From IMG/VR virus record IMGVR_UViG_2711768014_000012: a DNA stretch of 36,201 nucleotides; one strand, given 5' to 3'. Shown piece after piece: positions 26,501-32,500 of this stretch. How positions within the stretch are numbered: the first letter of the stretch is position 1; each line of letters starts with the position of its first letter. The stretch comes from a virus (lineage: Duplodnaviria > Heunggongvirae > Uroviricota > Caudoviricetes). A program made the position numbers.

Positions 26501-29500
26501 ACCGGTCCCCACTCCACCAGCATTCTTTTCACCTGGCTGTCGTCTTCCCACACCCCCGCGTGGGTCAGGGCGTCAAACAGCGCCTTGTTATAGTTGTCCA
26601 GATCGCGGATCCGGTTATCCGGAGGAAACAACACGATCTCCACTGAAGCAGGTGCCGACGTTGGTTTTGGCAGACGACGTAACTGCTCAACTATTGCTGC
26701 GCACGCCGCGCTCTGAAATTTTCGCCCCGCCGCGCTTATCAGGCTCTTACCAGCAAATGCCCCTTTGTTGGGGTGTCGCCAGTACGTGTTCACGCTGGGC
26801 GGGAAAGGCAGGATCAGCTTCATACTTTCAGGCCTCTCTCATGTAACCAGTGGGTTGCACGCAGCCTGGCGTTTTCCTCACCGGCAAGCAGTGAGCGGAT
26901 AATCCCGACCGCCTCGCTGTCGTCGTCCTTCACCGCGGTATGAAGAGTGATACCCCGGGCCATGCCACGCTTTATCGTGATGACGCCTTTTTTCTCCAGT
27001 GCGCGAAGATGTTCCACCGCTGCATTCACTGAACGGTATCCCAGCATGGTTGCCACCTCCTGATTGGTTGGCGGGAAGCCACGTTCTTTCTGGTAAGAAA
27101 TCAGCATATCCAGCACCTGCTGCTGGCATTGAGTTAACGTCGTCATGCCGCCATCTCCCTGACCAGTTTTTCCGCCTGCTGGCGAACCTGCGCCAGAAAC
27201 GCCTCACCACATGCCTCAAGTTCATCGCGCCCGATGTAGCTGATTGCCGGTCCCTTCCAGGTCTTGTCGAAAACAGCAATAGCACCAGCGAAGAAAGCGC
27301 CTGTCGGCACCTGCTTCTCGTCCTTCGGGATAAACCAGGCAGGCAGTTCAAAACCAATACGCCCGCGAATAAAAGCAATATGATCTGCATCTTCCGGCCA
27401 CCACACTTCGCTGGTGGCAGCTTTGATCAGGAAAACATAGCGTCCGCCCTTATCACGCATGGCACTGGCATGTTTCATGATGTAACGCATGCCGGTGATG
27501 TATTGCCCTTCATGCTGACTGGCGCGGCTGTACGGGGGATTACCAAAGGCAGCACCTTTAAGCTCCGCAAGACGTTCAGACCAGTCATGCGCCAGCGCGT
27601 TGTCTTCCGCAGTGTAATAAGCGGCACATTTGGCGTTATCACCATCAGTGAACAGATCCAGAACAAACGGGCCAAACAGGGTGTTAATTCCCCAGAAAAT
27701 GTTATCCGGCGTGCGCCACTGATCGCCCACTTCCTTCAGTTCATGGGCTGGTTTGTTCCGCAGCTCCACCAGCGCCTGGCAATATTTATTACTCATTAAG
27801 CCCCCACGTAATTCCCTGACAGATACCACTCTTCACCCGATGCAGCGCGCTTGCTGCTTTTCCGTAAGCACCGCTCACGACGCGCCAGAAAATTGTTTCG
27901 TTCTGGCTGGGAGTGGCTTTCACGGAATGCCGCCATCCACACCGTTGCAGCACGACGGTATAAGCCCCTGGACTCCAGTTCTTCCGCCTGGCGGGTCAGG
28001 CACAAAATCACCCGGGGATCGTTAGTGCCGACATAGAAATTGCGCACAGGTCTGGTTTCACGAACTGGTTGTGGTTCCGGCTCCTGCGCTCTCTCAGTCA
28101 GGCGTGGGAAATGTCTGCGTGTATCTCCTTCATAACGGTGAGCCACACGCCCACTCTGACGTAACTTGCTTGCTGACTGCAGAACGCGCTGCCGTGAGTA
28201 ACCTGCAAAAGCATCCGCAATGTCTCCGGAAGTACACCCCGGATGGGCTTCAATGAATTTCTGAACTTCATTCAAAAGACTCATGATCACCCCCTGAATC
28301 CTGCCGGGATCTGGCTGTAGTCCACGTTGTCGTAACTGGCTTTGAAGTACGGGTCCTCGCGTCTGGCTGCAGATACCGCAGGAACTTCCCAGAATTCTTC
28401 GAAATGACGATCCGGACCAAAGAACGTGACAGCCTGTTTCACAAATTGTGTGCCGCTGTTACCCATCGCAGATACCCATCCCGCGTAGCGTTTCACACCT
28501 TCCAGCATGGTTTCGGGGTTTACTCCCTCATTCAAACGGGCTTTCCAGGCTTTGAAGGCTGCAGATTTTGAATTGCCACCAGCACGTTTGGGATATGCCA
28601 GCCATGCCTGCTCAAACTCCGGAGAGTATTCCGGTCGGTTTGAACGAACTCGCACGGACTCATCAACTGATGCACCAACAGCTATTGGTTCATTGACTGG
28701 TTCTTTGACTGGTTCAAAAGAGTGACTGGTTCTGGGTGAATCTCCTGCACTACCCCCTGGTGCAACTCCTGCACTACCTGGTGAATTTGCTGCACCAGAT
28801 AGTGAATTATTTGCACTACCCCCTAGTGAATCTCCTGCACCATCCAGATGAAGGAGATAGATATTACTTGAGTTACCTTTTTCACCTTTCCGGGTGACTT
28901 TTTTTACCAGCCCGGACTCACAAAGGGCCGCAATATGATTCATCACAGAACGTTTGCTAATTTCGCACTGGTCAGCAATATGCTGGTAGCTGGGCCAGCA
29001 CTCACCCTGATCGCTGGCATTATCAGCCAGCTTGATCAGAACCAGTTTTCGCAATGGATTACCCACTCGAATTTTCATCGCTTTAACCATCAGCTCCATA
29101 CTCATGCTGCACCTCCGAGATGCTTCATGTTTTTTCCGGAGCGAAAGGCTATAAGCGGCATACTGACGCGGTAATTACGGCCCAGCGGTTCACAAATCAC
29201 CTTCTGGCATTCACGGTCAACCAGGCTAACACGTAGAACATGCCCTGCAGGCGTGGTGTACCACTGCCCAACTGTAGGAATTGATATTTTTTTACGCTGA
29301 AGCAAACGGCAAATATTGAGGATCAACGGATTAAGCATGACGATGCCCTCCGCTGATATTCAGGAGACGGTGAATATGAAAATTAGCCTTATCCGCCAGA
29401 CGAATACGTTCAGCTTGCAAGTTAAGAAGGGTTTCTACCAGAACCTGATGTGCCTGCGGATCCGAAAGAGTTACCTTGCGCAGAGCACGTAGTGCAGTTG

Positions 29501-32500
29501 TTACATAACTGAGTTTATGTAAGTCTTCATCATTCAGACGAGTGAGGGCTGGGACAGTAGCCATGATGGCAGCCTCCTTGATCGGTGAAATACTTCCACC
29601 ACCGGAAACGCCAATTTCGCTGGTGGTGAACTGAACGGGGTTGGCGTAACCGGTGATCAAGGAAACCGGCGCATCTTTCGATGCCCCCGCCCAGCCCACC
29701 ATAACTTTGATGTGAGCAAATGCGGACGATAAAAAAGACGCTGGCGCGTCATATATCGCCTTGATCAATTCCAGGACGCCAATCCCGGCACCCGCTTTAT
29801 AAGGTGCCTGAACAGTGTAACGTCCCGGAATGGCAGAATCAATGTGCTGGTGGTCCTTCACACTCAACAAAATCACGCCTGAATTTCCACAAAGGACTAA
29901 AGCACTCATGCGGGTAGTCTTTGCGAAGATAGATAACGCGCTGTGTTTCTGGCTCCCAACGAATAACATGAACATAAAGTCCTCTTCCGTCACGAAACCA
30001 GCGGTTAAGTTCCTGCACAACTCGCCCCCCACAGTCAGGTAAAGTTCTCTGTGGTTACTTACAGCCAGGTGATTTGGTAATCTGCATTCATGCCGTAACA
30101 ACAGGTGTTCAGCGACGCTGACCACCAGCTGTTGCGACAAACGGTTATTTGCCGTTAAACTGTTCATGCGTTAGTTTCTCCACAGACACAAAACGCCACG
30201 ACGCCCGGAGCTGCACACTCGCGGGCGTCACTCTTTTCTGGAGCGCAAAAGATTTTGTAGACCAGTGCTGCATGCTCCTGGAGCTTCGAAATTGACAGAT
30301 ACAACTCATCATTAATTGCTGTCTGCTCGTGTGGCTCCACTACCCCATCTTCGATTGCCGAACGAATCTGCTTTGAGTAACTCCCGATCTGTTCGATGAC
30401 TTCCAGCAGGCGCTGGTTTATATCGGCGTTCTCTACTTCCTCAATTTCAGGAAGCGATACAAACACCCCACCAGCAGACTGTGCGACAGCATCCGCAATG
30501 TAGTGAGTGCCAGCCGCGCGCTGTAAAATCATTGCCCATCCCAGCGGGAAAATCTGATCGCCATCTGCACGAAGGCGGTTGAATAAAGCGTTCTCTGTTA
30601 CATCCAGCCACTCAGCAGCTTCAGCGTAACCCCCCGGCAACGCCGCGATAGTTTTTCTGACAGCTTTCACGTACCACTCAGGCTGTTTTTCTACTTTCCA
30701 GTGATGCTTACCCACGGTTAGCCTCATCGTTCTGTGGTTAAAAATTGAAGGTGTTCTGTTAATCTTTCGGATAGATATCCGGTCTTAAGTCAGATTTCGT
30801 AATTGCACCTGACGTGCATTGCTCAAGTTTTTTAGCCAGCACAAAACTGGCTTTTTTATAACCATTGAAAACCAGCCGTAAGTAGCCTGGTGTTGAGCCA
30901 ACTTTTCCGGCCAACTCACCCTGCTGTTCTTTGGTTAAAGAGTCCCAATACGCTTTCATACAATATGTACCTCCGGTATACATATTACATGATTGAGATG
31001 AACCTTCAAGATACTTGTACCTTATCGGTACAAAGGTTTTAATTTCTTTATGAAAACAGTCCATGACATCCGGCGGTCTAACGCCAGAAAACTGAGAGAT
31101 GGTGTTGGCGGGAATTCTTCCTTTGCCACCATGATTGATCGCGAGCCAACCCAGACCAGCAGGTTTATGGGAGATGGTGCAACTAAAAATATCGGTGACA
31201 GCATGGCACGGCACATCGAAAAATGTTTCGACCTGCCTGTCGGATGGCTTGATCAAGAACACCAGACAACGAACATCACAAAAAAACCTGACGTTTCAAT
31301 CACTAACAAACAAATAACGTTAGTCCCTGTCATATCATGGGTACAGGCCGGAGCATGGAAAGAAGTTGGCTATTCTGAGGTTGATTTGAGCACAGCAGAA
31401 ACTTATCCCTGCCCTGTACCCTGTGGCGAAATGACTTATATCTTGCGGGTGATTGGTGATTCAATGATTGATGAGTACCGCCCGGGAGACATGATTTTTG
31501 TTGATCCTGAAGTCCCTGCCTGCCACGGTGACGACGTTATTGCATTGATGCACGATACAGGCGAAACCACCTTCAAGCGGTTGATAGAAGATGGAACACA
31601 GCGTTATCTCAAAGCATTAAACCCAAACTGGCCTGAGCCTTACATTAAGATTAACGGTAATTGCTCTATAATTGGTACAGTGATTTTCTCAGGAAAACCA
31701 AGAAGATACATAATAAAGGCCTAATCAATATTTATAACCTGCTTCGGCAGGTTTTTTTATACTTGACAATGTACCTTTGGGATACATAATGTATCTAAAA
31801 GAAACACAGCACAGGCAAGATTAAACAAAATTTGGTTGTAACACGGCGTATGGCACATGCGTCGTTAGCGGTCTGGGGACGTTAAAGGGGACAATCCACT
31901 CCTTGCTCGGGCAAACAAACCAGGTAGCCGGAATGTGCAAGTCAATGATGATGCTGATAAGACGCCTAACCAGCGTGGCGATTCGGTTTGACGCCTGGGA
32001 AGAGACCAGGGTGCAACGATGAGGACATTTATGGAACCGCGACAAAGTGTGGTGCCGTAACTGGCTAAGTGCTCTCAGCGTTGTGGTGAATGCGCAGGCT
32101 GATGCGCGAAAGACATTGCAGCTAATGCGGAAAAGAGCTGTTCGGCGGGGCAATTAAACGCCCGTGAGAGTCTGAAATAACCGCAAGCCGGAGATCAGCA
32201 CCGGTCACCACAACAGCCACTGCTTTGGCGGTACCAGTTTGTACACTTGCTTCCGGCTGGTACCGCTCTTTTTACAAAACAGAGAAGAGCATCACCGGAC
32301 GACGGGCTCATAACCAAATCCATCCGGGCGGCTGCCACCGCAGGTGTTCTTCTCTGTTTTGTGGAGAAACCAACCGACCTTGCAGGGTCGATATGATTAG
32401 GAGCAGCAAAATGGCTAGCGAACGCAGTACTGATGTGCAGGCATTTATTGGGGAGCTGGACGGCGGCGTATTTGAAACCAAAATCGGCGCAGTTCTCAGT

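Follow-up and report, generated by a model that had tools for sequence, protein, structure and literature searches.

Antisense-RNA cassettes of the P4, P1 and Gifsy type are a known kind of phage switch, and the c4-icd-ant mechanism of phage P1 is well established; it is used here as an analogy only. In the immI region of P1 and P7, the loop of a C4 RNA pairs at two places, a site farther upstream and the ribosome-binding site of the first open reading frame (ORF), the downstream genes overlap, and specificity is set by the sequence of the loop. We report that a cassette of this kind is present, mis-annotated as protein, in a virus record of the Caudoviricetes (IMG/VR IMGVR_UViG_2711768014_000012), whose whole stretch of 36,201 nucleotides (nt) is called the window hereafter; it lies on the minus strand between the cro-like gene ymfT and an O-like replication gene. 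For P4, the passages of PMC10111431 that cite Forti 1999 place a constitutive promoter inside eta, have its transcripts end early via CI-seqA/seqC with processing giving CI, and let Kil be translated on read-through only; within the same passages, translation of full-length eta requires an upstream promoter, is coupled to the gene before it and prevents termination, so that the replication genes are expressed (PMC10111431). In Gifsy-1 the isrK promoter has been experimentally defined, and a small ORF lying over the RNA region is conserved in nucleotide sequence and variable in protein sequence (PMC4825925).

The interval of the window resembles that of P4 in the order and spacing of its parts, that is, a long ORF coupled to the gene upstream and holding a promoter (in the window a promoter-like element), a seqA/IsrK RNA with its terminator, a CI/C4 RNA, a Shine-Dalgarno (SD) target and a nested ORF, and also in the position of the cassette 5' of a replication gene. 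The long ORF of P4 (8812..8168) has 214 codons, or 199 from M16, which makes it ORF199, or eta; seqA/isrK and CI/C4 follow one another in it, and ...QEAAIMATT then opens the nested 65-aa kil, the junction in the window being ...KEAAIMATV. Unlike P4, the window belongs to a temperate lambdoid phage that has a cI/cro/CII-like switch of its own, to which the cassette would add a second layer of control; its upstream promoter would be pR and not PLL, its nested 77-aa product is unrelated to Kil, its long ORF includes in addition a YmfM-like leader and an out-of-frame DUF4222 gene, and its replication gene is O/DnaD-like, that of P4 being the alpha primase. All the features of P1/P7 immI named above recur in the window, but it has no homologue of Icd or Ant, and its cassette belongs to the early right operon instead of a separate immI operon. 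Gifsy-1 (isrK-orf45(STnc1160)-anrP-isrJ) has isrK and C4 at the same spacing and a promoter in the homologous position, whereas its cassette stands after the Q gene and controls an ORF6N antirepressor, its IsrK is an activator in trans, and Rfam found no isrJ in the window. Element e14 of E. coli K-12 (ymfK-ymfT-ymfL-ymfM-oweE) shows the same order of cI-like (224 aa), cro-like and ymfL genes, a homologous ymfM start (MNSLT, with ATGA coupling) and a DUF4222 ORF; in contrast to the window it lacks the isrK/C4 cassette, and its ymfM ends shortly before an O remnant, 20 nt short of the DUF4222 stop.

We consider it highly probable that the interval consists of ymfL, a ymfM-like leader with a nested DUF4222 gene, and a P4-type RNA immunity cassette placed just 5' of the O-like gene. 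This reading stands on RNA genes, pairing with co-variation, nested ORFs and patterns of selection that are directly observed. At least five protein-coding units in two frames and two RNA genes are present where the original prediction had counted three genes. The three ORFs of 187, 278 and 78 aa do exist on the minus strand with overlapping junctions, and the block does sit between ymfT and the O/DnaD-like gene, as had been said; it is the second ORF whose nature has changed, from an undescribed protein gene to a 278-codon composite with a nested DUF4222 gene, two Rfam RNAs and an internal 77-aa ORF, most of it being the P4 seqA/CI, or IsrK/C4, RNA genes read as protein. A P4/P1-type antisense-RNA switch is thereby placed in the early right operon of a common E. 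coli/Shigella/Salmonella prophage family, directly 5' of the replication gene, and this suggests a second, RNA-based layer of immunity or replication control with phage-specific loop-target pairs.

Two RNA genes inside the 278-codon frame

The sole Pfam match of the 278-aa ORF is Phage_ASH (PF10554), over residues 117-210 (67.8 bits, cut-off 26), and both RNA genes lie inside this Ash stretch. The isrK gene matches Rfam RF01394 over the full length of the model (1-77) at 64.2 bits (gathering score 50), and an intrinsic terminator, a hairpin at 29750-29737 followed by U6 and ending at 29731, was called for it by a terminator scan. C4 matches RF01695, again at full length (model 1-87), at 82.3 bits (gathering score 45), with the long closing stem and two hairpins; the narrower Rfam c4-a1b1 model gave only 21.4 bits (gathering score 46.7). 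Aligned C4 sequences from diverse phages, 11 in number, adopt one shared fold, with compensatory changes in 13 of its 27 pairs.

The C4 loop of the window (CGGUUUCCUUGAUC, with CCUUGAUC as a part of it) pairs through nt 39-52 with the b2 target in a 14-bp duplex (11 Watson-Crick and 3 G-U pairs) that includes the SD AAGGAGG (29579-29573), 8 nt before the ATG at 29564 of the 77-aa ORF; with the b1 target inside isrK (UGAUCAAGG, 29767-29759) it forms a perfect complement of 9 bp. When 11 loci were compared (the window, P4, Gifsy-1, VT2-Sakai, PA2, a Klebsiella phage, Tyrion, an Actinobacillus phage, ST64B, Stx1_499 and a Citrobacter prophage), the loop was found to differ in each of them and the b1 and b2 targets to change along with it: pairing with self averaged 9.4 bp at the downstream target and 8.5 bp at the upstream one, against 6.0 and 5.5 bp with non-self. 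A promoter-like element stands at equal distance 5' of isrK in every one of these loci. That of the window is made of a -35 hexamer TTGATT (29842-29837), which overlaps the DUF4222 stop codon, a 17-nt spacer and a -10 hexamer TACACT (29819-29814), 6 nt before the isrK 5' end, and is weaker than those of Gifsy-1 PisrK (TTGACA-17-TATATT) and P4 PLE (TTGCCT-17-TATAGT). The 5' end of C4 (AGUUAUGGUGG) could moreover form a duplex, three of its pairs being G-U, that spans the start codon of this ORF (29559-29569 in the window, the 77-aa ORF).

As a protein domain, Phage_ASH passes its hidden Markov model (HMM) cut-off here and displays neither protein-like evolution nor a predicted fold. Among alignable relatives, the Ash stretch that covers isrK and C4 has in the 278-codon frame a ratio of nonsynonymous to synonymous polymorphism (pN/pS) of 1.54 and segregating sites of 20/17/12 at the three codon positions, with no third-position excess; this and the other selection statistics for the window are based on 12-24 closely related sequences. 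AlphaFold2, run with a 66-sequence alignment, returned predicted local distance difference test scores (pLDDT) between 27 and 49 over residues 1-105 and near 45 over the Ash stretch; only residues 211-270, a helical hairpin, exceeded 90. A Foldseek search of this model against the PDB yielded nothing meaningful, a sequence search of the 278-aa ORF against solved structures found no match, and the homologue search returned only relatives of at least 89% identity. In a library of 50% representatives, residues 1-100 are carried by close relatives alone.

The middle ORF has been annotated in different ways: SfV has one gene, orf37, and RefSeq, on identical DNA, a 59-aa DUF4222 protein and, from GTG 29876 onward, a 181-aa "ash family protein". 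If this RefSeq model, made by the Prokaryotic Genome Annotation Pipeline, were complete, there would be no RNA genes and codons 1-97 would be left untranslated. It has for it that it was drawn on the same DNA, that DUF4222 is clearly real and that free-standing Ash entries in the 50% representatives start near query residues 98-104, but it ignores the isrK and C4 matches, its Ash segment meets the same difficulties of selection and fold, and strong SDs stand before ATG 30167 and ATG 29564 but only weak ones before GTG 29876 and GTG 29861; we give it little credit. According to the SfV record, many RefSeq 278-aa "ash family protein" entries and the PHROG labels, the whole ORF would instead encode a single ordinary protein, either an antirepressor or a transcriptional regulator of the "Ash family". 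The frame is indeed open, is coupled to ymfL by ATGA and has a GGAG SD of good quality, it matches phrog_3960 over residues 103-278 (5e-111) as well as the Pfam family, many database proteins have an equal length, and the isrK-C4 frame is open too in ST64B, Stx1_499 and C. braakii. This explanation is nevertheless very improbable in our eyes: the Ash match coincides with the two Rfam RNAs, evolves without the signature of a protein and has no predicted fold, a terminator and a candidate promoter lie inside the ORF, and the cassette is non-coding in other phages. Stops occur in all three frames across the cassette in 3 of the 11 loci, and six other phages have the cassette in intergenic DNA that bears no annotation, with a Rha, ORF6N or Bro-N gene starting immediately 3'; in PA2 it is a Rha gene that begins directly behind C4.

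The origin of the family points in the same direction. In P4 the Ash HMM matches the old "cI gene product (AA 1-137)" ORF that lies over the C4/CI RNA, and Pfam Ash derives from this obsolete "cI protein" ORF; the Ash "domain" of the window is a pair of RNA genes read as protein. A widespread annotation error is corrected in this way, since "Ash family protein" (PF10554, several PHROGs labelled as transcriptional regulator, the "Rha/Ash" of Stx phages) amounts, at least here and in P4, to translated seqA/IsrK plus CI/C4. The equation of Ash with the epsilon antirepressor of P4, stated in PMC8628076, is ruled out: epsilon, the helper-derepression protein, belongs to another family, PF25738, and the Ash HMM matches the cI ORF. 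The survey of P4-like satellites in PMC8628076 used PF10554, which in P4 (7888-8584) matches the obsolete cI ORF over the CI RNA, as its marker of epsilon, and probably detected the immunity RNA region instead. Two-domain "Rha/Ash" proteins are on record for Shiga-toxin and Salmonella phages (ST64B sb41, the Stx1_499 "antirepressor Ant" and the Stx "Eru" phages of PMC8951638). In the proteins of ST64B and Stx1_499 the Rha domain lies about 155-200 residues farther from the annotated N-terminus than in PA2, and the "Rha/Ash" proteins appear to be Rha genes extended 5' across isrK and C4. As for RefSeq, its record of the identical E. coli A14 DNA (segment positions 2932-3619) contains coding sequences (CDSs) only, isrK and C4 being absent as features despite passing the Rfam gathering scores.

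DUF4222 nested out of frame in ymfM

Upstream of the cassette, the 278-codon ORF harbors in another frame a gene for a 59-aa DUF4222 protein, which is often missed by annotation. It matches Pfam PF13973 at 51.1 bits (cut-off 27) and phrog_1343 at 1e-36, its DNA is identical to the RefSeq CDS WP_001341559.1, and its own frame has a pN/pS of 0.10 among close relatives and of 0.01 in the closest set (segregating sites 1/0/10). In Pantoea, Yersinia, Morganella and other phages, DUF4222 is a free-standing gene directly 5' of O. The ymfM-like leader that precedes the nested gene looks degenerate as a sequence: of the YmfM N-domain motif (R-x-x-Q-L-R-x-I-P-V-P-G ... F-R-Y-E) it lacks PVPG, LPQLRMIPVPG having been lost, the score against a custom HMM of 26 YmfM N-domains is 26 bits, much of it from MNSLTxNNRL, and the segregating sites are flat across codon positions (7/9/8). 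The YmfM family phrog_1170 matches only residues 47-98, where the sequence is imposed by the overlapping DUF4222. The ymfM frame of the window does not have the stop at +157 (relative to the DUF4222 start) and continues into the cassette.

In e14 the annotated ymfM (cell-division inhibitor, SfiC) overlaps out of frame an unannotated 59-codon DUF4222 ORF with an AAGGAG site, at e14 segment positions 823-1181. We assembled 54 distinct enterobacterial sequences with at least 56% identity in DUF4222, and in all 54 the ymfM frame is open from -170..-299 to +157..+166, an openness that synonymous shuffling would lead one to expect in about 5% of cases per sequence. The avoidance of stops can be read in the codons: Leu, Val or Ile codons standing before an A-starting codon never end in a purine (0/185, compared with 84/263 at safe sites; Fisher p = 5e-23), and Arg after xTR codons is never encoded by AGR (0/89, compared with 116/425 elsewhere). 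The unique N-half of YmfM has a pN/pS of 0.35 as against 1.2-1.3 in the other frames, whereas in the overlap, over the 54 diverse sequences, the ratio is 0.28 in the DUF4222 frame and 1.37 in the ymfM frame, DUF4222 alone being constrained there. It follows from this stop avoidance and the frame-specific pN/pS that both genes are real and that the tail of YmfM is held open while its sequence can vary; ymfM and DUF4222 of the e14-type relatives thus make up a conserved out-of-frame overlapping pair.

The published ymfM study cloned and deleted the whole ORF and used no frame-specific mutants (bioRxiv 10.1101/2020.11.19.390815). The DUF4222 ORF with its AAGGAG site was included both in the clone and in the deletion; those experiments do not separate the two frames, and a concrete doubt arises as to whether the division inhibitor encoded at the e14 ymfM locus is the one product or the other. 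It is tempting, although we hold it to be rather unlikely, to go one step further and to suppose that in this phage group one stretch of DNA is read in three ways, as the DUF4222 frame, as a stop-free ymfM/eta-like conduit frame and as the promoter of the immunity RNA, with expression of O depending on upstream translation. The second frame of the overlap would then be selected only for staying free of stops, and ribosomes coming from the CII-like gene would travel along it past the terminator and the antisense-RNA cassette or, in e14-type phages, up to about 10 nt or less from the O start. If this were true, the SOS-inducible SfiC of e14, now assigned to YmfM, may be or may require the nested DUF4222 protein. 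Enterobacterial ymfM/DUF4222 prophage segments were met as well in assemblies labelled Vagococcus sp. WN89Y (a Firmicute) and in a metagenome-assembled genome labelled Geobacteraceae, and these likely reflect contamination or mis-binning.

Proposed control of the O-like gene

The 278-codon ORF begins at the ymfL stop (ATGA, with a GGAG SD 9 nt upstream) and spans the candidate internal promoter as well as isrK and C4; its last part is the 77-aa ORF, nested in the same frame. The start context of the latter, ...EAAIMAT, is common to P4 kil and to Rha-type antirepressors, its pN/pS is 0.26, and its product is a predicted helical hairpin, the only confident part of the AlphaFold2 model (pLDDT above 90); it has no match in Pfam or among the PADLOC defence models.

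What follows on the activity of the promoter, the processing and termination of the RNAs, the control of O and the roles of the small proteins is our inference. The internal promoter would make a short IsrK/seqA RNA ending at its own terminator, and the transcripts that read through this terminator would yield the C4/CI RNA, the loop of which would pair with b1 in IsrK and with b2 over the SD of the 77-aa ORF. In a lysogen, if P1 and P4 are a guide, C4 would block translation of the 77-aa ORF, the untranslated RNA would then be terminated, and transcripts from the internal promoter would not express O. The full 278-codon ORF is probably translated on pR transcripts only: after derepression of pR, ribosomes would enter it from ymfL by way of the GGAG SD and the ATGA, and in traversing IsrK and C4 they would prevent termination, so that transcription would reach the 77-aa ORF, the 78-aa ORF and O.

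Several points weigh against this interpretation of the interval. The hexamers of the internal promoter match at just 4/6 and 4/6 positions, and a generic promoter scan of 28900-31200 called no promoter, the internal element included. The 77-aa ORF has no similarity to P4 Kil (BLASTP), to P1 Icd or to any antirepressor domain. Because every downstream ORF carries an SD of its own, control of O by C4 would need Rho-type polarity. The sampling behind the selection statistics is, as stated, narrow. Finally, in all four SfV-type sequences and in P4 no stop interrupts the frame that crosses isrK and C4 and leads in register to the downstream ATG, and for this reason a polypeptide across isrK and C4 is probably made and may have some function. 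That the cassette could be a functionless relic left by recombination with a P4-like or Gifsy-like element, its small ORFs there by chance, is scarcely credible. The leader does look degenerate as a ymfM, the promoter hexamers fall short of those of Gifsy-1 and the effector is not recognisable as an antirepressor; but both RNAs are intact and of full length, the loop still fits both targets exactly, diverged SfV-type phages share this layout while loop and targets co-vary to a different specificity in each, the 77-aa, 78-aa and DUF4222 ORFs are under purifying selection, and at least 80% of the stretch is found in 452 complete E. coli genomes.

Gene order and flanking features

The first ORF of the interval had been left without a family and taken for an extra gene between cII and O. 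It scores above the cut-offs of both Pfam PF06892 Phage_CP76, the CII family of phage 186 (55.3 bits over 134 residues, cut-off 26), and NCBIfam NF041471 YmfL (169 bits, cut-off 90), matches phrog_101 "CII-like transcriptional activator" at 5e-73, sits as in phage 186 directly after cro and evolves as a constrained protein among close relatives, pN/pS being 0.10 and the segregating sites at the three codon positions 21/10/67. We take this 187-aa YmfL to be the cII analogue of the phage itself, a putative transcriptional activator of the 186 type unrelated to lambda CII, and therefore not an addition to the interval; a lambda-like reading, with cII plus extras, is ruled out. A sequence search of the 187-aa ORF against solved structures found no match, and overexpression of YmfL was without filamentation (bioRxiv 10.1101/2020.11.19.390815).

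The 78-aa ORF (SD GGAGGG) is a real protein of a narrow family with a predicted small beta-barrel. Its pN/pS is 0.37 (segregating sites 11/9/21), and only 42 relatives were found, all of them enterobacterial. Profile searches matched it to phrog_1153 alone (4.8e-42) and to no Pfam family; two of the three ORFs of the original prediction fall into well-characterised families. Its AlphaFold2 model (pLDDT 78.6) has an N-terminal helix followed by a small SH3/KOW-like beta-barrel, for which the closest structures in BFVD and the PDB, those of KOW, Tudor and SH3 domains, have E values of 1e-3 or weaker, insufficient for a family name. The protein is possibly a divergent DUF4222, to judge from weak similarities that fall in the same alignment register (hhalign 77% with a single sequence and 12% profile-profile; Pfam E = 0.064 in 2 of 20 members; the window DUF4222 ORF against phrog_1153 at 0.008) and from its position directly 5' of and overlapping O, which is the usual one of DUF4222. 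The regulatory character once proposed for the interval is borne out by a CII-like activator and by an RNA-based cassette of the immunity/antirepressor type before O; the idea of undescribed functions in three ordinary protein genes is not.

The bases 28900-31000 are 99.0% identical to orf36-orf39 of Shigella phage SfV and 100% identical to several E. coli chromosomes, by which the host of the interval is identified as an SfV-like lambdoid prophage; at least part of the stretch is present in 3054 of 5426 complete E. coli genomes. The features are collected in Table 1. Neighbouring ORFs are joined by ATGA at ymfL and the 278-codon ORF (30167/30164), by an 8-nt overlap, ATGCTTAA, at the 278-codon and 78-aa ORFs (29338/29331), and again by ATGA at the stop of the 78-aa ORF and the start of the O-like gene (29105/29102). 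The O-like gene has an SD GGAGG 6 nt upstream of its start and matches phrog_270 (2.4e-88) and Pfam HTH_36 and DnaD_N; a PerC-family gene (27796-28290) and dam lie downstream of it.

Table 1. Positions in the window of the features of the interval between ymfT and the O-like gene, and of its neighbours
Feature	Position	Strand	Remarks
cI-like ymfK	31050..31724	+	gene order around the interval
cro-like ymfT	30959..30759	-	directly before the block of three ORFs
ymfL, 187 aa	30727..30164	-	Phage_CP76/YmfL; start at 30715 (183 aa) in RefSeq and SfV
278-codon composite ORF (SfV orf37, "immunity region")	30167..29331	-	corresponds to eta (ORF199) of P4
YmfM-like N-terminal leader, codons 1-50	30167..30019	-	custom YmfM HMM; looks degenerate
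Nested DUF4222 gene, 59 aa, GTG start	30018..29839	-	other frame than the 278-codon ORF
Promoter-like element, -35 to -10	29842..29814	-	11-locus comparison
IsrK / P4 seqA-like RNA	29807..29731	-	Rfam RF01394
C4 antisense RNA / P4 CI homologue	29706..29619	-	Rfam RF01695
b2 / seqC-like target, GAUCAAGGAGGCUG	29583..29570	-	pairs with the C4 loop
Nested in-frame 77-aa ORF (M202-A278)	29564..29331	-	position of P4 kil / P1 icd / antirepressor
78-aa ORF (SfV orf38)	29338..29102	-	phrog_1153; overlaps both neighbours
O-like/DnaD-like replication initiation gene	29105..28287	-	first gene 3' of the cassette

Elsewhere in the window, a 108-aa ORF (26820-27146, minus strand) is named "LexA repressor" in RefSeq and is too short for it, full-length LexA having about 200 aa; it is located among nin-like genes, near dam and the PerC-family regulator. 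Three segments have a very low G+C content (5001-6000, 0.28; 21001-22000, 0.31; 34001-35000, 0.33) compared with a window mean of about 0.5, and these are probably acquired cargo (moron) genes. A 277-codon ORF (33801-34634) lies partly within the third of them.

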